This document shows, one piece after another, positions 3,483 through 58,742 of a stretch of 64,000 nucleotides of DNA. Source of the DNA: Candidatus Doudnabacteria bacterium RIFCSPHIGHO2_01_FULL_46_24. GTDB taxonomy: Bacteria; Patescibacteriota; Doudnabacteria; UBA920; O2-02-FULL-48-8. A model generated the notes under the pieces. It was not told the DNA's origin and searched no databases. It worked only from the letters and a program-made list of their open reading frames with translations. How positions within the stretch are numbered: the first letter of the stretch is position 1; every line of letters begins with the position of its first letter. The translations under genes were made by a program, and so were the position numbers. Location of the stretch: NCBI GenBank assembly GCA_001777575.1, contig MFEL01000008.1, forward strand, positions 42,634-106,633. The letters are read 5' to 3'.

Positions 3483-4534
3483 ATAATCATGCTTTTGAGG
3501 TCTTTGGGGATTTTGCTATGAATCTTGGGCTGTTTAGCCACGGTTATCATATCTTCTATTCTAACACCAAATTTGCCCGGCAGATAAATTCCAGGCTCAA
3601 CAGTCACCACGGAATTGACTTTCAGGACATCCTCAGAAGCGGGTGAAAAGTTGGGTTGTTCGTGAATTTCCAAACCTACGCCATGGCCGGTATTGTGGGT
3701 GAAATATTTGCCAAAACCGGCTTGGGTGATAACTTTGCGCGCGGTTTGATCAACCAACGAAGCTTTGTTGCCTATCTGGACTTTCGCGATGGCCTTAAGT
3801 TGGGAGTGTAAAACTGTTTCGTAAACTTTGGCTTGAAAACCTGTTGGCCGGCCAAGAAACAGGGTTCGTGTGAAGTCTGAGTGGTAATTTCCGACTTTGA
3901 AGCCGAAATCCAAAAGCAAAAAATTATTTCTGCCGACTCTGGTCTTGCTGGGAAAATGATGCGGGCTGGCTGCGTTGGAACCAAAAGCTACTATGGGATC
4001 GAAAGCCAAGCCTTCTGCGTCCAACTCTGTCCCATATTTCAAAATCAGTCCTGCAATTTTTGCTTCGGTTAACTCATATTTATTTATATATGCGCGTATA
4101 TACTTTTTTATTTGCTCAAAAGTCTTATCAATAATTGCACTGCCTCGCTCAATCGCCTTAAGCTGTGCTTTGGTCTTTACTGCTCGCACGTTCTCGATGA
4201 CATTAGCAGTTGATTTCCAACTAACCCCTTTCCCAATTTTCTTGAGGCTGGCAAACTCCCGCAAACTGATCCGATCCTCAATCGCGATTTTTTTATACTT
4301 AGCAAGAACCAAGTCTTTGCTAAGTCTTTCTAATTTTCTCACCGGCATGCCTGACTCTTTTTTTGCGCGCAAAAAATACCTCCCGTCAACATACAAAACC
4401 GCCTCGCGCTTGCTTATTACTAAATACCCGGCTGACCCCGTAAATCCCGAAAGATACTGCCGATTGATTTTGGTCAACACCAAAAAAGCATCCAGTTTTT
4501 TTTCAACCAGATAATCATGGATTTGGTTTGTCAT
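3479..4534 (-). CDS. Xaa-Pro aminopeptidase / M24B family metallopeptidase
   Basis: C-terminal HNTGHGVGLEIHE and GVRIEDM motifs of the M24 pita-bread fold. Has the N-terminal creatinase-like domain. Confidence 0.8.
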   Translation of the reverse strand: MTNQIHDYLVEKKLDAFLVLTKINRQYLSGFTGSAGYLVISKREAVLYVDGRYFLRAKKESGMPVRKLERLSKDLVLAKYKKIAIEDRISLREFASLKKIGKGVSWKSTANVIENVRAVKTKAQLKAIERGSAIIDKTFEQIKKYIRAYINKYELTEAKIAGLILKYGTELDAEGLAFDPIVAFGSNAASPHHFPSKTRVGRNNFLLLDFGFKVGNYHSDFTRTLFLGRPTGFQAKVYETVLHSQLKAIAKVQIGNKASLVDQTARKVITQAGFGKYFTHNTGHGVGLEIHEQPNFSPASEDVLKVNSVVTVEPGIYLPGKFGVRIEDMITVAKQPKIHSKIPKDLKSMII

Positions 4535-5681
4535 CCCTTATTTGTAATTTAATGGATTTGGTTGAATCGAGAAGGGAGGATTCGAACGTGGAAATGTAAG
4601 AATTTCGTTGCTGATGCTTTTCTTGGGCCAATTTAAGCAGGGCAGTCACGACTTCTTCCAATTCCATGCCCGAAGCTTTCCAGAGGTGGTGGTAAAGCGT
4701 TCCCGGCATAGTATTGATCTCATTGGCAAAATACTGCTCAGTTTGCTTATTATACAAAAAATCAACGCGGGCGATGCCGCTGCAGCCGAATTTTTTAAAA
4801 ATTTCCACGGCCAGATTCCGGATTTCTGAAGTTGTTTTGTCATCCAGCCTGGCAGGAATAATGATGTTCTGCTGGGCATTGCCCAACTGTGCGCCGCCGT
4901 CTTTGAGATATTTCTCGTCATAGGAGAATAATTCACTTTCAAACACCGATTCTTGCAGCAGCGATGGGCTGGCGTCGTCATTGCCAAGCACAGCGCAGGT
5001 GACATCCATCAAATTTTCTACGGTTTCTTCCACCAAAAAACGCTCGCCGTAGTGTGCGGCAACCTCAATCGCTTCCTCCAACTCCTTGGGATTTTTTGCT
5101 TTGGCAATTCCGATGGACGAGCCAAGCTTGGCTGGTTTGACAAACAACGGCCACCTAAACTTGCTTGCCTCGTTCATTATTGCACTCTTGTTTTTTTGCC
5201 ACTCTCGGGTGGAGTAAAACAAAAATTTGGCCGTTGGTATGCCAAGTTTCTCATAAAGCTGCTTGGTCAGAATCTTGTCCATGGTCACCGCCGAAGAAAC
5301 CACGTCACAGCCGACGTAAGGCAGGTTAAAAATTTCAAACAAGCCTTGGATTGTGCCGTCTTCGCCGTTCATGCCGTGAAAAGCCGGAAAAGCCAGCTCG
5401 ATTTCGTATCGTTTTTTTAGCAATCCTACCGACGCAAATACCATCTTGCCGTTGCTTGACTGCAAATCCAAAACAAACTTGCTGCGTTTCGGGAGAGGGA
5501 ATTGCTGAAAAAATTTCAGGCTCCCCAGTTCTTCGCCGACATTCCAATCTCCGTCTTTGTCCAAATAAACCGGAGTCACTTTGTGCCCCAGCTTCCTAAG
5601 CGTGGAAATTATGAGCTGCCCAGTAATGATTGAGATATCATGTTCCGGGCTGCGGCTCCCAAAAAATACCCCGATATTCAT
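4515..5681 (-). CDS. ddl: D-alanine--D-alanine ligase
   Basis: MNIGVFFGSRSPEHDISIITG N-terminus and ATP-grasp motifs. Adjacent to murF. Confidence 0.85.
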   Translation of the reverse strand: MNIGVFFGSRSPEHDISIITGQLIISTLRKLGHKVTPVYLDKDGDWNVGEELGSLKFFQQFPLPKRSKFVLDLQSSNGKMVFASVGLLKKRYEIELAFPAFHGMNGEDGTIQGLFEIFNLPYVGCDVVSSAVTMDKILTKQLYEKLGIPTAKFLFYSTREWQKNKSAIMNEASKFRWPLFVKPAKLGSSIGIAKAKNPKELEEAIEVAAHYGERFLVEETVENLMDVTCAVLGNDDASPSLLQESVFESELFSYDEKYLKDGGAQLGNAQQNIIIPARLDDKTTSEIRNLAVEIFKKFGCSGIARVDFLYNKQTEQYFANEINTMPGTLYHHLWKASGMELEEVVTALLKLAQEKHQQRNSYISTFESSLLDSTKSIKLQIRDDKPNP

Positions 5682-5787
5682 AAGTGTGATGCGAATTTAC
5701 GAATTTCATGCGAATGCTGCGAATATGCAAATCTTGGCGTTAGTCCATTCGCATATTTGTAGATTCGCATACATTCGCAGATTCGTA
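5682..5787 (-). repeat. Intergenic repeat family 1, copy A (gcgaat/ttgtagattcgcat words)
   Basis: Shares architecture and about 70% identity with 57898-58020 and 58393-58508. Fills the whole ddl-murF spacer. Confidence 0.7.
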
Positions 5788-7128
5788 TCATGTATAATTC
5801 TCCGGCCAATCGTTTTGAAACAAAATGACGTCTCCCGGCTTTACGATGCTCTTAATTGCATTGTGCGCTAGATGGGCTGATCCGAACCATTTGATGTTTT
5901 CGGATTTGAAGCCTTCCTGCAACAAACCCTGTTCAATAAATGGCGTAGCCGAATTTTTAATCAATATGACCACATCCGCCGCATGCGCCAATTGCTTGCC
6001 GATTTCTTTGTGCACCGCTTCGGTTCGGCTGCCCATCTCCACCAAACCAGGTGTGACATAAATTTTTCGCTTATCCTGAAAACCTGCCAAAACTTTTATT
6101 GCCTCTGCCGCCCCATCCGGATTACCATTGTAACTGTCATCAATTACCACCACCCCATTCGAGTTGGGCAGAATTTGAAGGCGATGCGGAATCTGCTTAA
6201 TTTTGCCAATACCGTCACGAATTTCCAACTCGCTTAAACCCAATTCTTTAGCAATTATAACACAGGCGTTGACAACACCCCAAGCGTAACTGCCCAGAAG
6301 CGGCATTTTCACATTTGGAAGCATCTGCAATTCTTTGGAATACCAGAAAACTGGACGCTCGCCAAGATATTTTTGATAGTTTTGCTTGATCAACTCACTG
6401 TCAGAATTCAAAACCACCAACGCCTGCGACTTGGAATTGACGACGATTTCAAACTTAGCCGCAATGGTGTTCTTAATCCCACCAAACAGCTCCAGGTGCG
6501 CTTCATTGATTCCGGTCAGCAACACAATGTCCGGCTGGGCAATAGCGCAAAGCTGAAAAATATCTCCCCTTTTATATGCCCCCATCTCAACGACAAAGAG
6601 CTCGATGTCACCATCAAGCTTATCTAAAATCAGTCGCGAGATTCCCAGCGGAGTATTGATATTTTCCGGCGTGGTTAGGACTTTGAAACGTTGGGATAAA
6701 ACGGCAGACAGGCTTTCCTTCATCGTGGTTTTGCCGAAACTGCCAGTAATGCCGATGATCTTAAGTTTTGGCAGTGTCCGCATTTTTGTCCTAGCCTGAG
6801 CAACTATATAATGCTTAATGGCAAAATCCAGGGGAAAGAGAATGAGCACGGATAAACTTAAAAATATGGGAGCCAACAGGTTTGCCCAAATCAGCCACAG
6901 GAACAGGAAAGCCACAACAAACCAGGGGCCGGTAAATAGGGCTTCAAAATAAGCAACAGTTGCCGCAAATAAAATTGATAATGTCAAAATCGCCAAGGCT
7001 TTGGGCGTCCAGACTATTTTTTTTCGAGGCGCTTGTTTGACCTTAAACACGCCCTTCCAGTAGCGGAGCAGGCTATAATTATTCAGTTGTAAAAAATACA
7101 ATTGGTGCAAGATTGGCCAGCGCGTCAT
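5788..7128 (-). CDS. murF: Mur ligase, MurF-like (UDP-MurNAc-tripeptide--D-Ala-D-Ala ligase), with an atypical N-terminal membrane region
   Basis: GITGSFGKTT P-loop at about residue 128. Central and C-terminal Mur ligase domains are present. The first ~100 aa are hydrophobic TM segments instead of the usual MurF N-domain. Sits next to ddl. Confidence 0.75.
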   Translation of the reverse strand: MTRWPILHQLYFLQLNNYSLLRYWKGVFKVKQAPRKKIVWTPKALAILTLSILFAATVAYFEALFTGPWFVVAFLFLWLIWANLLAPIFLSLSVLILFPLDFAIKHYIVAQARTKMRTLPKLKIIGITGSFGKTTMKESLSAVLSQRFKVLTTPENINTPLGISRLILDKLDGDIELFVVEMGAYKRGDIFQLCAIAQPDIVLLTGINEAHLELFGGIKNTIAAKFEIVVNSKSQALVVLNSDSELIKQNYQKYLGERPVFWYSKELQMLPNVKMPLLGSYAWGVVNACVIIAKELGLSELEIRDGIGKIKQIPHRLQILPNSNGVVVIDDSYNGNPDGAAEAIKVLAGFQDKRKIYVTPGLVEMGSRTEAVHKEIGKQLAHAADVVILIKNSATPFIEQGLLQEGFKSENIKWFGSAHLAHNAIKSIVKPGDVILFQNDWPENYT

Positions 7129-10586: not shown

Positions 10587-10618
10587 TTTAGAAATTAGAT
10601 ATTAGAAATTAGAAATTT

Positions 10619-11173: not shown

Positions 11174-12620
11174 CCTGCCTCATGGGTGGGAAAATTACGG
11201 TTTCGCGCATTGACTTGTTCATCAGCACCGCAAACACGCGCTCGCTCATGCCAAAGCCCACGGCCGGCGGCATGCCGTATTCCAGCGCTTCCACGTAATC
11301 CTCGTCCATCATTTGCGCTTCTTTGTCCCCCGCTTCGCGCAATTTCATCTGTTCCTCAAACCTCATTTTCTGGTACTGCGGGTCATTGACTTCTGACCAG
11401 GCATTGCCCAGCTCCGTGCCCGCGGCCAAAATCTGAAACCGCAGGACTTTTTTGGGATTTTTGGGATCGACTTTTGCCAGCGGTGAAATTTCCGCCGGGT
11501 GTCCGACCAGGAAACATGGCTGAATCAATTTCGGCCGAACGAGCTTTTTGTAAATTACGTCAATCAACCGGCCAACCGAACCTTCCACATCAGCACCCAA
11601 TTCTTTTGCCTTCTTACGAAGATCACCTTCGTTAGCCTTATTCAAATCCAGGCCTGTGGCATCCTTAAACGCCTTAAAGTAATCAACCTTGGGCCATTTG
11701 CTACCCCAATCAATCTTATGTCCTTCGTATTCGATTTCCATGCTGCCACAAACCTTTTTGACAATTTCTTTGAACAGTTTTTCCGAAAGCTTCATACCAT
11801 CTTTGTCATCGGCATAAGCCCAGTAAAATTCCATATCGTCGTATTCCTGCAAATGCTCGCGGTCAATGCCTTCGTTGCGGAACAGTCGGCCGATTTCAAA
11901 CACTTTTTCAAAACCGCCGACCAAAAGTCGCTTGAGTGGCAATTCTAAAGAAATCCGCAAATAAAAATCGCGGTCCAAAGCTTCGTGATGAGTAATAAAG
12001 GGCGTGGCATCAGCGCCGCCAGGAACATCTTCCAAAACCGGCGTCCAAACCTCCAGGAAGCCTTGCTTAATCATGAAATTGCGGATTACTTGCCAAAAGA
12101 CGGCCTTTTTGCGAAACAACTCTTTCGTTTCCGGGTTGGCGATAAGATCAAGATATCTTTTTCTGAGCCTAACTTCTGCGTCCTTAAGCCCAAAGTAATT
12201 CTGCGGAATAGGACGCAAGCTTTTAGCTAATAGCTGATAGCTATCAGCTTCCAAGGTTTTTTCCCCGGTTTTCGAAAGGGCCAAGGTTCCAGTAAACTCG
12301 GCAAAATCGCCGATGTCAAAAAGCTCTGAGAATTGCCGAAATTTCTCACCCAGTACGTCCTCGCGCAGCAAAAACTGGATTGAGCCCGATTCATCCTCAA
12401 GATTGCCGAAAGTCAGCTTGCCATGTGTGCGAATTGAGCGAATCCTGCCAGCCAGTGTTACGTGTTTCGTGTTACGTGTTACGTGATCAAAAAGCTGCAA
12501 AGCCTCACCCACAGTATGGTCCCGCTTCGACTCAACCGGATAAGGATTAATCCCGGCCTTTTTCAAAGCCTCAAGTTTTTGTATCCTAACTTTCCTTAAT
12601 TCTTCGATTTTTTCAGACAT
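11166..12620 (-). CDS. lysS: Lysyl-tRNA synthetase (class II)
   Basis: Aligns along the full length with bacterial LysS (anticodon-binding OB N-domain plus class II core; FRNEGI motif). Confidence 0.9.
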   Translation of the reverse strand: MSEKIEELRKVRIQKLEALKKAGINPYPVESKRDHTVGEALQLFDHVTRNTKHVTLAGRIRSIRTHGKLTFGNLEDESGSIQFLLREDVLGEKFRQFSELFDIGDFAEFTGTLALSKTGEKTLEADSYQLLAKSLRPIPQNYFGLKDAEVRLRKRYLDLIANPETKELFRKKAVFWQVIRNFMIKQGFLEVWTPVLEDVPGGADATPFITHHEALDRDFYLRISLELPLKRLLVGGFEKVFEIGRLFRNEGIDREHLQEYDDMEFYWAYADDKDGMKLSEKLFKEIVKKVCGSMEIEYEGHKIDWGSKWPKVDYFKAFKDATGLDLNKANEGDLRKKAKELGADVEGSVGRLIDVIYKKLVRPKLIQPCFLVGHPAEISPLAKVDPKNPKKVLRFQILAAGTELGNAWSEVNDPQYQKMRFEEQMKLREAGDKEAQMMDEDYVEALEYGMPPAVGFGMSERVFAVLMNKSMRETVIFPPMRQDD

Positions 12621-12721
12621 GTTACGTGTGACGTGATTCGTGTTACGTGGCCTTAATTATACCATAAATCAGTTAAACACCTCAACCGGGTTGAGGTGTT
12701 TAACGGGCTTATGTTAGTCAA

Positions 12722-21124: not shown

Positions 21125-21236
21125 GCAGTAATGCGTTATTCGTCGGCGCCACGCGTATCGTCTTACGGCTTACGTTTTGCGGCCGCTTACCGTTTAACGC
21201 TTACCAATACGCGCCGCGCTGCCGTTAAACGTTTAA
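21125..21236 (-). repeat. Intergenic repeat family 3, copy 1 (acg/cgt-rich; contains gcgctgccgttaaacg)
   Basis: Shares a 16-mer and vocabulary with 27653-27752 and 35380-35479. Confidence 0.55.
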
Positions 21237-25453: not shown

Positions 25454-25521
25454 AGTTATAAATTATTTTATTACGAATTCCGGATTAACGAATTGTCAAT
25501 CCGCAATCCGTTAATTCGCAA
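25454..25521 (-). repeat. Intergenic repeat family 2, copy 1 (cggattaacgaattg / ccgttaattcg words)
   Basis: Related to 55728-55804 and 56960-57034. Contains nested inverted repeats. Confidence 0.65.
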
Positions 25522-26775
25522 TTAATCAATTCTCTTGATATCCGCGCCCAAGCTTTGCAGTCTTTCTTCTAATCGCTCATACCCCCGATCAATATGCTCC
25601 ACTCCGCCTATCTCGGATTGTCCAGTGGCCACCAGAGCCGCAATTATCATGGTCATACCCATCCGAATGTCAAGGCCTATTATTTTAGCACCATGCAGGG
25701 GAGTAACACCAGCGATCTTTACCTGATGGGAGTCTAACACTTCCGCGTTGGCACCCATTTTTTTAAGCTGTTGGACATAGCTGAGACGGTTCTCGTAAAG
25801 CCATTCGAAAATATAAGATTCACCTTCGGCCTGCGTGGCCAGCACGGCCATGGGCGGCATGTCGTCTGAAGCCAACTTAGGATACAACCCGCTTTGGATT
25901 TTAGAGCCAGTATAAGGCTTTTGGGACGGCGACACATGGATATAATCTTTTCCGGTTTCAAAATTTACATGCATCTGCCGCAGTTTCAGCAAAAAATCTT
26001 CCATAAATTCCGGATTCAATCGGGAAATGACCACGTCGCTTTTGGTAGCTGCGGCCAAGGTAATAAAACCGGCAGCCTCGTTGGAATCCGGAATAAGTTC
26101 GGCGGTGGCGCCATGAAGCTCAAGCGCGCCTTCCACGACCAAAGTCGGCGACCCGATGCCGGAAATCTTGGCCCCCATTCTGTTCAAAAATTCGCACAAA
26201 GCCTGGACATGCGGCTCCATGGCCGCCAGTTTGATTATGGTTGTCCCCGAGGCCAAAACCGCGGCCATTAACGCGTTTTCCGTGGCTGTGACCGATGATT
26301 CAATTAAAACGATTTTATTGCCTGTTAATTGCTCGCAGTTAAGCTCAATGCCGTTTCCCTGCCTCACCTCGGCTCCTAAATCCTCAAAAGCGCGCAAATG
26401 GGCATCCACGGGCCGTTTGCCGATCAAATCGCCGCCTGGCAAAATCATGGCGGCTTTTTTCTTCCGGGCCAACAAAGGCCCCAAAAGCAATATGGATCCG
26501 CGCAATTTGGCAGCCAAATCCGGATTAACTTCGGTCTTGGAAAGTTTTGCGGCCCTGATGCTGAGGCGGTGATCTCCCAAACTGACTTCTGCGCCCAAAT
26601 CCGAAAGCAATGACGCCATGGTTTCCACATCGCGGATTTTGGGCACATTGGTCAATATGCACTCGTCCGCCGTCAAAAGGCAGGCCGCCATCATGGGCAA
26701 AACCGCGTTCTTTGACCCCGCGACTGTTATTTCCCCGTTTAGCGGTTTATTGCCGTTTATAATAAATTTAGCCAT
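25522..26775 (-). CDS. murA: UDP-N-acetylglucosamine 1-carboxyvinyltransferase
   Basis: Start reassigned to MAKFIINGNKPLNGEITVAGSKNA (ATG at 26775). The 88-aa N-terminal extension in the ORF track has no similarity. Confidence 0.9.
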   Translation of the reverse strand: MAKFIINGNKPLNGEITVAGSKNAVLPMMAACLLTADECILTNVPKIRDVETMASLLSDLGAEVSLGDHRLSIRAAKLSKTEVNPDLAAKLRGSILLLGPLLARKKKAAMILPGGDLIGKRPVDAHLRAFEDLGAEVRQGNGIELNCEQLTGNKIVLIESSVTATENALMAAVLASGTTIIKLAAMEPHVQALCEFLNRMGAKISGIGSPTLVVEGALELHGATAELIPDSNEAAGFITLAAATKSDVVISRLNPEFMEDFLLKLRQMHVNFETGKDYIHVSPSQKPYTGSKIQSGLYPKLASDDMPPMAVLATQAEGESYIFEWLYENRLSYVQQLKKMGANAEVLDSHQVKIAGVTPLHGAKIIGLDIRMGMTMIIAALVATGQSEIGGVEHIDRGYERLEERLQSLGADIKRID

Positions 26776-27652: not shown

Positions 27653-27752
27653 ATCGTTGTTCGTCTGCGCTTGCGCGTATCGGTGAACGTCAAACGTCAA
27701 GCGGCCACATAACGCCGCCGTCAGACGATACGCGCAGCGCTGCCGTTAAACG
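27653..27752 (-). repeat. Intergenic repeat family 3, copy 2
   Basis: Contains cgcgcagcgctgccgttaaacgctaag, related to 21125-21236. Confidence 0.55.
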
Positions 27753-28175
27753 CTAAGTGCTTTCATCCAAAGCCTCATTGACTAGCTTATCCGCCAGTTT
27801 ATTTTTTTCCCGCGGAACATGCTTATATTCCACGCTCAGAAACTTGTTCGAAAGCTTAAAAACCTCGGCAGCCAAAAGTTTCAGTTCTTGCTCTTTTACT
27901 TTGTACTTGCCGGTCAGCTGGCGCACCACCAACTCTGAATCCAAAAAACAGGTTAATTCTTTGGCTTCTAAACTTTCAGCTTCTTTGAGGCCTCGGATCA
28001 AAGCCTGATATTCAGCCTGGTTATTTGTGGCATTGCCAATATGCTCGCCTACTTGGCGCAAGGGCTTCTCGCCAACGCCATAAATCACCACCCCAATCGC
28101 CGCCGGCCCGGGATTCCCCCGCGCCCCGCCATCCGTGTAGATTGTAATCTTATTTGGCATAATTTTTAGTGTCAA
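27753..28175 (-). CDS. rnhA: Ribonuclease HI
   Basis: ITIYTDGGARGNPGPAAIG N-terminus and the DEDD catalytic residues. Confidence 0.8.
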   Translation of the reverse strand: MTLKIMPNKITIYTDGGARGNPGPAAIGVVIYGVGEKPLRQVGEHIGNATNNQAEYQALIRGLKEAESLEAKELTCFLDSELVVRQLTGKYKVKEQELKLLAAEVFKLSNKFLSVEYKHVPREKNKLADKLVNEALDEST

Positions 28176-35379: not shown

Positions 35380-35479
35380 TTAGTAATAAGTTAAAGGGCT
35401 GCGATGCCCGTTTCGTCATACGGTGACGCTTTACGTCTAACTCTCAACGATACGGGCTTCGTTACCGTAAGACGCTAAA
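35380..35479 (-). repeat. Intergenic repeat family 3, copy 3
   Basis: acg/cgt-rich words (cgtttcgtcatacggtgacgctttacg…ccgtaagacgctaaac). Confidence 0.5.
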
Positions 35480-37666: not shown

Positions 37667-38089
37667 TCAGCGATTCGAAATTAACGAATGGACATCCGAA
37701 TGATCCGAAACTACAAAATCCGGATTAAGAACCCTCTTGGGTTTAATAAAAGAGCCTCTGAAATTTACTATCAAACCAAGTTCTAAATTTGCCGCTTTAA
37801 GGTACCTCTGCATTTGGATATAATCTTCTTTGGTTATAAAAGTCTTTGCTTTGAAATCTACGAAAATTTTGCGCTCGACAAAAAAATCTACTTTGTTGCC
37901 TCTCGGCGAATTTTTGTTCAGTTTACTAATTTCGAACTCTCGCTCATATTCCCACTTTTCTTCTTTAAGTAACTCTTCAAATCTATCGCCATACTGCTTT
38001 TCTCTACAGAAACGTCCGAGCTCTTTCGCTACTCTAAAGCATAAACCACTAATCTTATAAGATAATTTTGCTTCAACTATTTTTGGCAT
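37667..38089 (-). CDS. GxxExxY family protein
   Basis: LSYKISGLCFRVAKELG…YGDRFEELL…ELGLIVNFRG matches the GxxExxY signature. Confidence 0.8.
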   Translation of the reverse strand: MPKIVEAKLSYKISGLCFRVAKELGRFCREKQYGDRFEELLKEEKWEYEREFEISKLNKNSPRGNKVDFFVERKIFVDFKAKTFITKEDYIQMQRYLKAANLELGLIVNFRGSFIKPKRVLNPDFVVSDHSDVHSLISNR

Positions 38090-38171
38090 ATTCGGATGCG
38101 CGCTTTCGTAGTGCGCCTTTCGGATACTATTCGTGGCATTCGAATGTCCAATTCGTGGCTTCGTATCGCTG

Positions 38172-39408: not shown

Positions 39409-39420
39409 ACTTCCGTTCTA

Positions 39421-39444
39421 CATTCATACACGACTGTATGAATG
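39421..39444 (-). promoter_or_regulatory. Operator copy 1: palindrome cattcataca-cgac-tgtatgaatg just downstream of a TATAAT -10 box
   Basis: A 32-bp segment (39420-39451) is identical to 39956-39987. The minus strand reads TATAAT-ACATTCATACAGTCGTGTATGAATG. Confidence 0.6.
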
Positions 39445-39453
39445 TATTATAAA

Positions 39454-39945
39454 TTATAGCTGTAAATCTCTGCTTGCTGAACGCTGCTTAAGTTTCTTTG
39501 TGATAAGACGACTAACTTCCGGAATGCCCTCGGTGACCAAATCCGCCAAAAACGTTTCAGCCGGCATTTTTCTCCGAACTCGCCTTTCCAGGATCGTCTG
39601 TCTCTCCTCGCGTTTTCTCTGGAATTTATTTTCCAAATCAACCAATTTCTGATGAACCTTCTTTAATCCTTCGCCCCGGGTCATCAGCGTATTATTAACG
39701 GTTGTGATTGTTCTGGCGGTAACTTTCAGGGCATCCATGATCTCTTCGTATGTCTGACCATCGATGAGGCGCCTAGCGATTTCTAACCGCTTAGCAAACA
39801 TCTTATATTCTGTGTGTGTAAATAAATCCTTAAACAGCAAACGAACATCCTCCTTGGAATCCATTAAAGTAAAGGCTGACCATAAATTGTTCACATAATG
39901 GCCGAAGTGCTGCGGGTCTAAATGTAATCTTGATAGTTTTGTCAT
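39454..39945 (-). CDS. TrpR-like (YerC/YecD family) helix-turn-helix regulator
   Basis: ARRLIDGQTYEEIMDALKVTARTITTVNN matches the Trp-repressor-like YerC/YecD HTH. Confidence 0.6.
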   Translation of the reverse strand: MTKLSRLHLDPQHFGHYVNNLWSAFTLMDSKEDVRLLFKDLFTHTEYKMFAKRLEIARRLIDGQTYEEIMDALKVTARTITTVNNTLMTRGEGLKKVHQKLVDLENKFQRKREERQTILERRVRRKMPAETFLADLVTEGIPEVSRLITKKLKQRSASRDLQL

Positions 39946-39956
39946 TTTTTATTTCA

Positions 39957-39980
39957 CATTCATACACGACTGTATGAATG
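39957..39980 (-). promoter_or_regulatory. Operator copy 2 (identical palindrome) overlapping the promoter of the TrpR-like gene
   Basis: The minus strand reads gcgcTATAAT-acattcatacagtcgtgtatgaatg-tgaaataaaaaATG. Confidence 0.6.
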
Positions 39981-39990
39981 TATTATAGCG

Positions 39991-42709: not shown

Positions 42710-42759
42710 AAAATACATTGTATTGTATAGAAATTGAAAAAAAATAAAATAAGCTCATC

Positions 42760-42789
42760 AACCTAAATGTGCCATGGCACATTTAGGTT
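42760..42789. promoter_or_regulatory. Perfect 30-bp palindrome aacctaaatgtgccatggcacatttaggtt
   Basis: Centred on CCATGG. Shares the 14-bp core tgtgccatggcaca with the palindrome at 43414-43433. Confidence 0.55.
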
Positions 42790-43387: not shown

Positions 43388-43413
43388 ATTTTTTAAATTT
43401 ATTGAGCCTACCT

Positions 43414-43433
43414 ATTTGTGCCATGGCACAAAT
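43414..43433. promoter_or_regulatory. Perfect 20-bp palindrome atttgtgccatggcacaaat, 27 nt upstream of the PaaX-like gene start
   Basis: Same CCATGG-centred core as the 42760 palindrome. Putative autoregulatory operator. Confidence 0.55.
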
Positions 43434-43498
43434 GGGTCAACGAGCATGCTCAAATCTACCATTAAGCCTCAATTAACCTAAAAATTATTAATTTCTTG

Positions 43499-55353: not shown

Positions 55354-55385
55354 TTGATTAGTAATTAGTAAATAGAAATTAGAAA
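55354..55385 (-). repeat. Stop-codon-rich tandem word spacer (ttagtaa/ttagaaa) between rplR and rpsE
   Basis: ttgattagtaattagtaaatagaaattagaaa. Confidence 0.5.
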
Positions 55386-55727
55386 TTAGAACTTGAGACC
55401 GGCTGACCGCGCGGCGTCAGCCAATTCTTTTATCCGGCCGTGATATTTATAACCGCCGCGGTCGAAAGTGACCTCTGAAATGCCCGCTTTCAAGGCCTTT
55501 TCCGCGGCCAACTTCCCGACCAATGCAGCCAATTGGGTCTTGTTGCTCTTACCCGGCACTTCTCGGCTGGTCGCGCTAATAAGCGTCCTGCCGCTTTCAT
55601 CGTCAATCAACTGCACATAAATATGGCTTAATGATCGAAACACGCTTAAGCGGGGGCGGGCTGCGATGCCGCTTATTTTTGCCCGAACTCTTCGATGCCT
55701 TGATTGTCTTTGCTTATTTCTGGCCAT
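55386..55727 (-). CDS. rplR: 50S ribosomal protein L18
   Basis: Full-length L18 similarity. Confidence 0.9.
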
Positions 55728-55804
55728 ATTCTTATAATTATTTATTAACGAATTGCGGATTACGGATTATCAATTCACAATTCGTTAATCCGTTAATTCG
55801 CCAA
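55728..55804 (-). repeat. Intergenic repeat family 2, copy 2 (between rplF and rplR)
   Basis: ttaacgaattg…caattcgttaa 11-bp inverted repeat nested with a cggattacgg / ccgttaatccg pair. Confidence 0.65.
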
Positions 55805-56359
55805 TTACTTACCACCACCGACTGCCTTCACGACTTTGCCAGCCTTGCGCCTAATGATTTCATCCGAATATTTAATTCCTTTTCCTTTGTAGGGTTCCGG
55901 TTCTCTTTGGGAACGAACAACCGCGGCAAACTGCCCGACCTGTTGTTTGTCGCTGCCGCTGATTGTGATAAGATTTTTGTCGACCTTGGCTTCGAGGCCG
56001 GGAGGAATAGCCATTTCGATCGGATGGGAATAACCTAAATTCAACGTCAGCGACTTACCCGTAACCGCAGCCTTGTACCCAACACCGTTGACTTCCAAGA
56101 TTTTAGTGTACCCATTGGTCACACCGAGGACCATATTGTTGATCAGCGAGCGAAACAGCCCCCACAGCGCCTTTTCTTGTTTCGATGCTTTGTCAGCCAC
56201 TTCCACGACCAATTCCGAATCACGCTTCACCGCTTTGACTTTGGGATGAATCGTAAGCGACAGTTCTCCTTTCGGCCCTTTAACCTTAAGGATTTGGTCT
56301 ATGACTTCGGCGGTAACGCCTGAAGGGATGGTGATCGGTTTTTTTCCTATGCGTGACAT
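55805..56359 (-). CDS. rplF: 50S ribosomal protein L6
   Basis: Start reassigned to MSRIGKKPI (ATG at 56359). Confidence 0.9.
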   Translation of the reverse strand: MSRIGKKPITIPSGVTAEVIDQILKVKGPKGELSLTIHPKVKAVKRDSELVVEVADKASKQEKALWGLFRSLINNMVLGVTNGYTKILEVNGVGYKAAVTGKSLTLNLGYSHPIEMAIPPGLEAKVDKNLITISGSDKQQVGQFAAVVRSQREPEPYKGKGIKYSDEIIRRKAGKVVKAVGGGK

Positions 56360-56959: not shown

Positions 56960-57034
56960 AATGCTTAAAAATTATTTATTAACGGATTACGGGTTACGGA
57001 TTTGCAATTCGCAATTCGTTAATCCGTTAATTCT
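56960..57034 (-). repeat. Intergenic repeat family 2, copy 3 (between rplE and rpsZ)
   Basis: ttattaacggattacgggttacgg…caattcgttaatccgttaattc. Confidence 0.65.
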
Positions 57035-57577
57035 CTAATCATTCTTAAAGGGGAAGCCTAAAGATTTTAGCAGAGCGAGCGCCTTCTTGTCATTGTCGGT
57101 ATTGGTCTGAATGTTTATCTCCAGCCCAAATGCATGCTCAATGTGCTCGTCGCCGGTTTCCGGAAAAACATTCTGCTCTTTGATGCCGATGTTGTAATTC
57201 CCACACCCGTCAAATCCTTGCTTGGACAAACCACGGAAGTCGCGGACACGGGGCAACGCAGCTCTAATCAATTTTTCCAAAAAATCATACATGCGCCGGC
57301 CCCGCAGCGTAACCTTAAGTCCAACTACCTGATTCTGCCTGATCTTAAACCCAGCAATGGATTTACGAGCCAATGTTTTAACCGGCCGCTGCCCTGCTAT
57401 GCGTTGGATGTCTTCGATAATGATATCCAAAAATTTGGGATCTTTCAAAGTTTTACCGACTCCAACGTTAAGCACGACCTTCTCGATTTTGGGAACCGCG
57501 GAAGCGTTTTGCAAACCCAACTCTTGCTTCAGAGCTGGGACGATTTTTTCTTTATAAATCGTTCTTAAATCTGTCAT
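57035..57577 (-). CDS. rplE: 50S ribosomal protein L5
   Basis: Start reassigned to MTDLRTIYKEKIVPAL, which aligns with the E. coli L5 N-terminus and abuts the rplX stop. Confidence 0.9.
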   Translation of the reverse strand: MTDLRTIYKEKIVPALKQELGLQNASAVPKIEKVVLNVGVGKTLKDPKFLDIIIEDIQRIAGQRPVKTLARKSIAGFKIRQNQVVGLKVTLRGRRMYDFLEKLIRAALPRVRDFRGLSKQGFDGCGNYNIGIKEQNVFPETGDEHIEHAFGLEINIQTNTDNDKKALALLKSLGFPFKND

Positions 57578-57897: not shown

Positions 57898-58020
57898 AAG
57901 AATAATATGATGCTAATTTGCTAATTTATGCCAATTGGCGAATTGCTAATGGCCCAACGCTAAGTGTTTGGTTATTCGCAATTTGTAGATTGGCATGACA
58001 TTCGTAGATTCGCATCGTAT
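57898..58020 (-). repeat. Intergenic repeat family 1, copy B (between rplN and rplX)
   Basis: About 85-90% identical to 58393-58508. Confidence 0.75.
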
Positions 58021-58392
58021 TTATATTACTTCCGGGGCTAATGAAATAATTTTCGTAAAACCCAGATCGCGCAATTCCCTCGGAATCGGGCCAAATATGC
58101 GTGTCCCCCGGGGCTCTTGGCTGTCCTTATTCACCAGCACGGCAGCATTGTCATCAAATCGAATATACGAACCGTCGCTCCTCCGAGTCTCCTTCCGGGT
58201 TCTGACGATTACCGCATAAACCTTGTCGCCTTTTTTGACCTGCCCTTTTGGTGAAGCATCCTTAACCGAAGCCGCGACCACGTCGCCGAGCCTGACTACG
58301 CGCCTGCGGTTTTTCCCGGCTACGCCGAATACGGCCAATTCCTTGGCCCCCGTATTGTCTGCAACGTTTAATCTGGTCCTGAGCTGAATCAT
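58021..58392 (-). CDS. rplN: 50S ribosomal protein L14
   Basis: [18 protein letters not shown]-terminus. Confidence 0.9.
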
Positions 58393-58508
58393 GAATATGT
58401 GATGCTAATTTGCGAATCTTATGCCAATCTGGCGAATTGCTAATGGTCCAACGCTAAGGGTTGGGTTATTCGCAATTTGTAGATTGGCATTGCATTTGTA
58501 GATTCGCA
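58393..58508 (-). repeat. Intergenic repeat family 1, copy C (between rpsQ and rplN)
   Basis: Near-identical to copy B. Contains a tandem atttgtagatt(g/c)gcat unit. Confidence 0.75.
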
Positions 58509-58742
58509 TCATATCTTACTGATTACTCTCCAATGCACTGTCTTGGAAATTGGCCGACATTCTTCTATAACAACTCGGTCTCCGGCCTTAAATTCGCCCT
58601 CGCCAATCTGTGCTGGGTATCGTTTGTGCACCTTAAATCGTTTCAGGTATTTTGGGTGGGTTTTTGTAGACTCGACCTTGACCACCACGGTTTTATGCAT
58701 TTTTACGGAATCTATAATCCCAATCAAATGTCTCTTTGACAT
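58509..58742 (-). CDS. rpsQ: 30S ribosomal protein S17
   Basis: Full-length S17 similarity. Confidence 0.9.
   Translation of the reverse strand: MSKRHLIGIIDSVKMHKTVVVKVESTKTHPKYLKRFKVHKRYPAQIGEGEFKAGDRVVIEECRPISKTVHWRVISKI

Follow-up and report, generated by a model that had tools for sequence, protein, structure and literature searches.

The Correia repeat enclosed elements (CREE) of Neisseria and the enterobacterial repetitive intergenic consensus (ERIC) sequences are non-coding, multi-copy elements of about 110 bp, whose terminal inverted repeats fold into a hairpin. They lie in intergenic gaps within operons, are co-transcribed, and have ends in common with a longer element that encodes a protein. 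RNase III cleaves the Correia elements, which can also give rise to promoters (PMC10969869), and the Rickettsia palindromic elements (RPE) insert between genes as well as in frame inside protein-coding genes, where they are read through (PMC10969869). A repeat that is alike to Correia and ERIC elements in its size, hairpin, operon setting and longer relative, with co-transcription being predicted here, occurs in the spc ribosomal operon and next to ddl in a 64,000-nt stretch of contig MFEL01000008.1 (positions 42,634 to 106,633) of Candidatus Doudnabacteria bacterium RIFCSPHIGHO2_01_FULL_46_24; this whole stretch is called the window below. The data suggest that these repeats, named family 1, are probably miniature inverted-repeat transposable element (MITE)-like, gene-less members of an insertion family, whose full-length form carries a gene for a GxxExxY protein. 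The function of this protein family (PF13366/TIGR04256) is listed as "Unknown" (PMC3424549).

Family-1 palindromes in the spc and mur-ddl junctions

The window contains three family-1 copies. Copy 1 (57905..58020), an imperfect palindrome of 113-116 bp, lies in the rplN-rplX junction; copy 2 (58396..58513), identified by blastn, nhmmer and folding, fills the rpsQ-rplN junction; and copy 3 (5684..5792), which is diverged and scores 95 bits with nhmmer, fills the junction between a Mur ligase gene and ddl. All three are on the + strand in their own polarity, which in copy 1 is set by ATTTGTAG-type units in the 3′ arm, and they are antisense to the host genes; the nhmmer score of copy 1 was 116 bits in the + orientation versus 62 bits in the - orientation. 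The host genes are on the minus strand: rpsQ (S17, 58509..58742) is upstream of copy 2, rplN (L14, 58021..58392) is between copies 2 and 1, and rplX (L24, 57580..57897) is downstream of copy 1, followed by rplE (L5, 57035..57601) as the next gene of the same ribosomal set, while the murF-like Mur ligase gene (5788..7128) is upstream and ddl (D-Ala-D-Ala ligase, 4515..5681) downstream of copy 3. The gene names given in the original prediction agreed with Pfam matches on the identical contig L115 for S17, L14, L24 and L5, and the D-Ala-D-Ala ligase and Mur ligase were also confirmed. Because the host genes are on the minus strand, the elements precede rplN, rplX and ddl when read in that direction; the original prediction missed the strand of the genes.

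The likeness of the two ribosomal spacers, which are 116 nt (rpsQ-rplN) and 123 nt (rplN-rplX) long, was borne out by blastn within the window (57898-58020 versus 58393-58514, 90.2% identity over 123 nt, E 2e-41). The proposed third copy before ddl was recovered as well, with the right arm of 5682-5793 matching at 88.6% over 44 nt (E 9e-10), and a three-way MAFFT alignment of the copies had a mean column identity of 83%. Five independently assembled contigs (L115-L119) carry both spacers unchanged and with identical hidden Markov model (HMM) scores, so the repeat is not an artefact of local duplication or assembly; the insert is fixed in the source population.

Each copy matches itself on the opposite strand at about 73% (blastn), and is therefore one long imperfect palindrome. 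Thus, the complementarity of the 5′ and 3′ parts that had been described as partial is present, and it extends almost from end to end. The copies are 107-116 bp long with inverted-repeat termini TGATGC...GCATCA, and the internal direct repeat ATTYGTAGATTSGCAT, which occurs twice, was located in the sequence together with the motif string reported earlier. As is typical of MITEs, they are short (<~600 bp) and non-coding, with no coding capacity beyond a 4-codon open reading frame (ORF) in the loop, their inverted repeats take up the entire, imperfectly palindromic element, and dispersed copies are present, with three of family 1 and three of a related family 2 within the 64 kb. RNA folding of the + strand gave -50 to -58 kcal/mol with z-scores of -7.3 to -8.4, while the minus strand, which corresponds to the mRNA, gave -27 to -40 kcal/mol; the difference is explained by 6-10 G.U pairs on the + strand. 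For copy 1 the values were -57 kcal/mol (+) and -26.8 kcal/mol (-), with 10 and 0 G.U pairs, respectively. With DNA parameters both strands folded into a hairpin of -17 to -25 kcal/mol. The ends of the elements contain stop codons of the upstream genes, which are the rpsQ TGA (58509-58511) within TGATGC and the Mur ligase TGA (5788-5790) within TGATAC, and in the minus-strand fold of copy 2 the UAUGA of the rpsQ stop pairs with the UCAUG of the rplN start.

The same ribosomal operon was compared in the closest relatives, which are Doudnabacteria with L14 85-89% identical. An ATGA overlap (-4 nt) joins rpsQ to rplN in L120/L121 and L124/L125, where 9-11 nt lie between rplN and rplX, while in L123 the two gaps are 9 nt and 4 nt. 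Four of the five closest relatives lack the family-1 insert at the orthologous junctions (gaps of -4 to +11 nt), with empty sites seen in L120, L121, L123, L124 and L125. Hence, the window copies are lineage-specific insertions into once-tiny gene junctions. The copy 2 junction reads ...agtaagatATGAT|gcgaatc...cacatattc|ATGATtcagctc, which places the ancestral ATGA(T) on both sides of the insert, so that a 5-bp direct repeat ATGAT flanks this copy. Inspection by eye showed no consistent target-site duplication at copies 1 and 3, nor at the copies in other genomes. In L122 (L14 89% identical) the rpsQ-rplN junction contains at 2447-2501 a different small ACGAAT/ATTCGT palindrome (GATTTACGAATTTACGAATCAGTACAAATTCGTACTTCGTAG), which indicates that related elements hit this junction independently.

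Dispersal and the GxxExxY-associated form

To describe the distribution of family 1, one genome per species (596 Gb) was searched with the 25-26-nt arm pattern TTGTAGATTSGCATN{1,2}CATTYGYAGA, for which about 0.07 chance matches were estimated. The search returned 34 loci, nearly all in metagenome-assembled genomes from many lineages of the Candidate Phyla Radiation (CPR), including Kaiser-, Lipton-, Jorgensen-, Harrison-, Staskawicz-, Magasanik- and Sungiibacteria and bins labelled Saccharibacteria. Among these loci, the profile built from the window copies recognized 23 full-length palindromes. The dispersed copies sit between unrelated genes, usually 2-9 nt from neighbouring stop or start codons, and after the arms of gene-carrying elements were removed 8 had the same and 11 the opposite orientation relative to the flanking genes. 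Several single genomes had 2-3 matches each, for example MHLB01 with L007, L026 and L027. No match to the arm pattern or to the GxxExxY profile was found in viral contigs, and tblastn with a CPR GxxExxY protein found none in plasmids. Together with the lineage-specific insertions and the arms matching gene-carrying elements, this spread over the CPR supports the MITE-like or repetitive extragenic palindrome (REP)-like option, which had been raised originally as one of several.

The link to a gene was provided by L011, a locus between prfB and ftsE, in which the left arm TGATGCGAATAATGCGAATCGGATGCTAATCTACGAATTGCGAAT and the right arm ATTTGTAGATTCGCATTTCATTTGTAGATTGGCATC are separated by a 131-aa ORF. 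This ORF matches PF13366 PDDEXK_3 (E 2.6e-23, 83 bits) and TIGR04256 "GxxExxY protein" (E 1e-21, 77.5 bits, cut-off 35). A GxxExxY gene also adjoins the arm match in L016 and occurs in the window, as detected by tblastn. The arms of L011 and L105 are 85-97% identical to the corresponding halves of the gene-less copies, including those in the window. The family-1 HMM matched both sides of the L105 gene in the sense orientation (E 7e-10 and 1e-8), as well as the right arms of L110, L104, L101 and L056; read in the sense of the gene, the T/G-rich arm comes after it. The longer elements whose arms match (L011, L105, L110 and L106) encode a GxxExxY protein of the PD-(D/E)XK fold, whose role as a transposase is putative. 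The associated ORFs match PF13366/TIGR04256 only, and not the HUH/Y1 (IS200-like) REP-associated tyrosine transposase (RAYT) that accompanies REP sequences and REPINs.

A set independent of the arm pattern was obtained by scanning metagenome contigs with the GxxExxY protein, where the best 80 of 262 relatives gave 67 non-redundant loci with enough flanking sequence. The flanks of these genes paired with an energy of -25 kcal/mol or lower in 62 of the 67 loci, with a mean of -46 kcal/mol versus -27 kcal/mol for shuffled sequences. The 106 nt upstream of the genes contained CNAAT 243 times and ATTNG 45 times, while downstream of them ATTNG occurred 266 times and CNAAT 62 times. The architecture is of fixed polarity, with the order xxxCNAAT units, gene, ATTNGxxx units, usually with four 8-9-nt units per arm; those of the right arm follow at a spacing of 8-9 nt, with ATTCGGAT and ATTCGCAT being the commonest. 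The terminal motifs AGCGATCCGAAT..., CGACACGAAT..., GCGATGCGAAT... and TGATGCCAAT... divide the elements into subfamilies, the last of which is family 1.

The GxxExxY gene of the window belongs to a complete, 504-bp gene-carrying element of a sister subfamily on the minus strand (37668..38171), which was found by tblastn and by its sequence, and the terminal inverted repeat of which was mapped on the identical contig L035. It consists of a left arm (38090-38171, CAGCGATACGAAGCCACGAAT...ATCCGAAT), the ORF (37667-38089; PF13366 E 3.5e-19, 69.7 bits versus a cut-off of 22) and a right arm (37668-37722, ATTTTGTAGTTTCGGATCATTCGGATGTCCATTCGTTAATTTCGAATCGCTG; flank sequence ATTTTGTAGTTTCGGATCATTCGGATG...TTTCGAATCGCTG), which also encodes the C-terminal tail of the protein (DFVVSDHSDVHSLISNR). 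The arms are built of CGAAT/ATTCG-type units. The element starts 28 nt past the upstream stop codon, and its own stop codon is 1 nt before the ATG of the next gene (37665). The AlphaFold2 model of the encoded protein (predicted local distance difference test score, pLDDT, 85) has a PD-(D/E)XK fold; the catalytic D...(D/E)xK arrangement of this fold is present in GxxExxY proteins, with D...D-x-K conserved. A search by sequence found no solved structure of a GxxExxY protein. The original prediction identified repeats that are real, and it contained neither the full palindrome nor the link to this gene.

The gene-carrying elements are co-directional with their neighbours in 46 of 47 cases upstream and 36 of 38 cases downstream. 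They start at a median of 1 nt past the upstream stop codon and often end 0-5 nt before the next start codon. L039 and L040 are 88.6% identical along precisely the 475-nt element and unrelated beyond it, with the left arm 100% identical and the ORF diverged; the same unit thus arrived at two different sites, and constraint acts on its arms. The block shared by the two loci (L039 2954-3428, L040 2710-3184) extends 4 nt (TAGC) past the left and 11 nt (AAWATATGAAA) past the right inverted repeat, and therefore includes the stop codon of the upstream gene and the ATG of the downstream gene; this may reflect a target preference or an element that carries its own junction codons.

Some elements are located inside genes. 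The 628-aa GatB encoded in L004 (760-2646, minus strand) has two clean in-frame inserts in comparison with solved GatB structures, one at aa 79-223, which comprises arms and a GxxExxY domain, and one at aa 313-341, which is an empty palindrome of four plus four units (-56.5 kcal/mol). A search of 1.84 billion representative proteins with a CPR-only profile gave 5,290 clusters at 50% identity (E<=1e-3), and many of the best matches were long proteins with an embedded GxxExxY domain. By Pfam, the hosts of the embedded domain were FolD, M50 peptidase, RecG, GT4 glycosyltransferases, GatB (at another site) and enolase (embedded or fused cases P0375, P0378, P0383, P0388, P0390, P0398, P0407, P0443 and P0445, and L036, L053, L047, L055, L060 and L062). 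In the protein-found CPR set about 7 of 74 genes are read in frame into a host ORF, which is an archease, a pilin-like protein or the interior of an M50 protease. In the archease and pilin-like cases the domain is fused to the N-terminus, and the pilin fusions end just before the ...FTLIE prepilin motif.

The family also extends beyond the CPR, with at least 7,990 proteins sharing words with a single Bacteroides GxxExxY member. Twelve non-CPR genes were sampled (loci including L126-L131, L134 and L136-L138, from Bacteroidota, Sphingomonas, Treponema and Gemmatirosa), and all those with annotated neighbours were between co-directional housekeeping genes, for example fabD|X|fabG, radA|X|... and V-ATPase B|X|D. 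Inverted 8-9-nt units bracketed 5 of the 12 genes, 4 had gene-less hairpins alongside and 3 had neither; examples of these units are CACAGAGGA (Bacteroides), CGCGAAGG (Sphingomonas) and CACGAAG (L137). Several tandem hairpins surround the gene in L136 and L138, and the arrangement in Bacteroidota is more complex than that in the CPR.

Proposed mechanism and rival explanations

These data suggest that each family-1 repeat is a miniature copy of a small selfish insertion element that is widespread in the CPR. The full element of about 450-580 bp comprises a left arm of about four xxxCNAAT units, a GxxExxY gene of about 125-140 codons, and a right arm of about four complementary ATTNGxxx units. 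In the miniature form there is no gene and the two arms make up one hairpin of about 110 bp; we infer that the gene-less copies arose from full elements by ORF loss. Such copies might be moved in trans, now or formerly, with the nuclease targeting either the arrays of the arms or the hairpin or cruciform that they form, and this nuclease-driven movement is a possible but doubtful part of the model. In the host, the copies are predicted to be co-transcribed with the spc and mur-ddl operons, where the base of the long hairpin would place the stop codon of the preceding gene beside the start codon of the following one. The hairpin would thereby likely make the insertion nearly harmless, for example by ribosome hand-over or as a site of RNase III-type processing, while it is unlikely that the element supplies regulation needed by the cell.

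Several observations weigh against the assignment of family 1 to a GxxExxY-associated insertion family. The elements lack a transposase of any known class, and the literature searched describes no activity for a GxxExxY protein. The window has no family-1 element with a gene, and its resident GxxExxY element has other arms. The gene-less copies occur in both orientations, as opposed to the nearly uniform co-direction of the gene-carrying elements. Since the T/G-rich arm is downstream of the gene, the window copies run opposite to their host genes, and simple in-place deletion of a co-directional element cannot account for the three of them. The ATGAT at copy 2 may be microhomology, and no regular target-site duplication was seen at 55 gene-carrying elements with ends mapped by local alignment. 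The transcription, processing and translational coupling of the window copies are predictions.

Other explanations can be compared with the same data. The promoter/leader module of the original prediction would, as a promoter, leader or attenuator, control the synthesis of L14, L24 and Ddl. It would agree with the position of all three copies directly upstream of a start codon in the sense of the gene strand, and with two weak promoter-like matches (9 of 12, TTGGCA-N16/17-CATCAT) that face outward from the element ends, although these are explained as a by-product of the arm units. It seems hardly credible, because the element is missing at these junctions in all but one of the five closest relatives and the same element accompanies unrelated genes in either orientation in 30-plus other genomes. 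Moreover, an Rfam scan of the whole window at gathering scores found nothing, a scan of the region at E<=1 returned only sub-threshold hairpin noise of miRNA-precursor type, and between 57500 and 58800 neither strand had a site resembling an intrinsic terminator. The proposal of a protein-binding RNA of the ribosomal operon is not supported, given its absence from the relatives' junctions, the unrelated neighbours elsewhere and the lack of an Rfam match; an r-protein leader or known structured RNA was likewise rejected, with no curated-family match and no conservation at orthologous junctions. The element could instead act mainly as RNA, with RNase III or the encoded nuclease cutting its stem at the base and the ends perhaps re-ligated, as a self-removing processing cassette or intron-like insert. 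The much better fold of the + strand of the window copies, with 9-10 G.U pairs, could be seen as a sign of this, as could the co-direction of gene-carrying elements abutting stop and start codons, the inserts inside the essential genes for GatB, enolase, FolD, RecG and an M50 protease, and the cutting of Correia elements by RNase III at their inverted repeats (PMC10969869). However, the G.U excess, present in 22 of the 23 copies found with the pattern, is subject to a search bias, since TTGTAG in the pattern itself fixes the T/G-rich arm. The 67 protein-found elements showed no such difference (-46.1 kcal/mol sense versus -47.7 kcal/mol antisense, sense better in 29 of 67), and the strand asymmetry was dropped as a proof of RNA function. 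Also, it is the weaker hairpin that the host mRNA carries, the window copies being antisense to it, and the intragenic inserts keep the frame open over 29-145 codons, which splicing does not need. The D...D-x-K triad is that of metal-dependent DNases and not the Y-H-K of splicing endonucleases. Hence, we regard a main role as RNA as quite improbable.

It could also be that the unit-array palindromes are primary, REP-like sequences spread by a host or other factor, and that the GxxExxY genes are secondary invaders homing into hairpin loops, as homing-endonuclease genes do into introns. Homing endonucleases of the PD-(D/E)XK type exist, gene-less copies outnumber gene-carrying ones 6:1 in the window, and gene-less hairpins lie beside GxxExxY genes in L043, L063, L088, L090, L131, L134, L136 and L138; the missing target-site duplications at the 55 elements also suit such a history. 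On the other hand, the polarity of the gene relative to the arms is always the same, and the units, which differ by lineage, stay with the gene from the CPR to Bacteroidota, Sphingomonas and Treponema. In L039 and L040 the arms and the gene travel as one unit. Additionally, the window copies have a loop, ATGGTCCAACGCTAA, that is similar to the initial and final codons of the L011 ORF, ATGTCAAAG...GACGCATAA, which fits ORF loss better than ORF gain, although this resemblance is only suggestive. On these grounds a secondary arrival of the gene appears unlikely.

The reading of family 1 as gene-less members of a GxxExxY-associated insertion family leads to a broader proposal, which we consider tentative. 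GxxExxY (PF13366) genes could be the signature of an undescribed selfish "nuclease-in-hairpin" class, present across the CPR and other phyla, in which a minimal PD-(D/E)XK nuclease would lie between two arrays of 8-9-nt units. Such elements would enter operon junctions in the direction of the neighbouring genes, or essential proteins in frame, and would shed gene-less hairpins. They would be nearly cost-free, because the arms fold as RNA or act as flexible linkers in the protein and so keep the host reading frames connected. Their movement would be unlike that of known transposase families, possibly by structure-specific cutting of the hairpin or cruciform. No description of a nuclease-in-hairpin element was found in the open-access literature.

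Related repeats and comparison with known systems

Family 2 consists of shorter elements of the same kind, with units related to those of family 1 (TTAACGAAT / CGGATTA ... TAATCCG / ATTCG). A unit-array palindrome of about 70 bp with ACGAAT/CGGATTA ... TAATCCG/ATTCG units is located in the rplR-rplF junction (55736..55805), and a second one, 89% identical to it, in the rpsN-rplE junction (56970..57039). A family-2-like palindrome (25454..25531) lies between two minus-strand genes.

Other repeats were also noted in the window. Two identical 32-nt hairpins (ACATTCATACACGACTGTATGAATGTATTATA; 39420-39451 and 39956-39987) flank a 163-aa minus-strand ORF (39454-39945) as direct repeats. Related palindromes with a perfect core (...CCTAAATGTGCCATGGCACATTTAGG...; 42753-42788 and 43410-43445) flank a 191-aa ORF and look like operator or terminator sites. 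Intergenic repeats of other short units (GTTACGTG; CTTACGG/CCGTAAG) are present at 12456-12485, 12620-12649, 21133-21236, 27717-27753 and 35380-35479, and a 25-nt stretch is 96% identical between 21207-21231 and 27728-27752; the CTTACGG/CCGTAAG-type and GTTACGTG repeats may represent further unit-array families. A low-complexity TTAGAAATTAG repeat is common to the gap at 10588-10617 and the rpsE-rplR junction (55358-55401).

These observations provide the orphan family PF13366/TIGR04256 with a genomic context, and hence with a role that can be tested, in which its members are the proteins encoded by small mobile elements. They also suggest that long structured spacers in core operons of compact CPR genomes are insertions and not lineage-specific regulation, and that annotation and comparative searches for RNA motifs should treat such spacers accordingly. 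How reduced genomes can tolerate insertions the size of a domain in essential proteins is a question posed by the inserts in GatB, enolase, FolD, RecG and M50 protease. The lineage-specific, sequence-defined arms might be used to trace recent gene flow between CPR lineages, and they are possible substrates for finding a new structure- or repeat-specific nuclease.

Some known repeat types were considered and rejected. TIGR-Tas systems do not apply, as neither the array nor a Tas protein is present here, and reading of the sequences did not reveal the GTTRRRY core of integron attC sites at the element ends. The number of copies found per genome is, in our judgement, far too small for DNA-uptake sequences.

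Among the described systems, Correia and ERIC elements differ from family 1 in that the longer partner here encodes a PD-(D/E)XK-fold protein of about 130 aa, and not a DDE or other known transposase. Moreover, there is no regular target-site duplication here, each arm consists of about four 8-9-nt units in tandem, in place of a simple inverted repeat, and the family spans many phylum-level CPR lineages. The RPE are likewise palindromic repeats of about 100-150 bp in a reduced genome, and the in-frame inserts in the L004 GatB are like them; this likeness is one of behaviour only, since RPE are by description confined to Rickettsia, while the host here belongs to the Doudnabacteria, and they have no known protein-coding parent. 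The REP/REPIN-RAYT systems also combine dispersed short palindromes with a single small gene between inverted copies, which is taken to mobilize the repeats in trans. In contrast to the elements studied here, with their PF13366 gene and arms of 40-55 nt of repeated units, their gene is of the HUH/Y1 (IS200-like) type and REP sequences are 20-40 nt long. The intervening sequences of 23S rRNA that contain an ORF are similar in that a small ORF of unknown function is enclosed by a long stem in the host transcript, but they reside in rRNA helices and are removed by RNase III, while the elements described here are at or inside protein-coding genes, with processing predicted at most. Finally, inteins and free-standing homing endonuclease genes resemble the GxxExxY elements in placing a nuclease domain in frame, here in GatB, enolase, FolD and RecG, whereas the GxxExxY elements have no Hint or other splicing domain, occupy many unrelated sites, and are in most copies intergenic.

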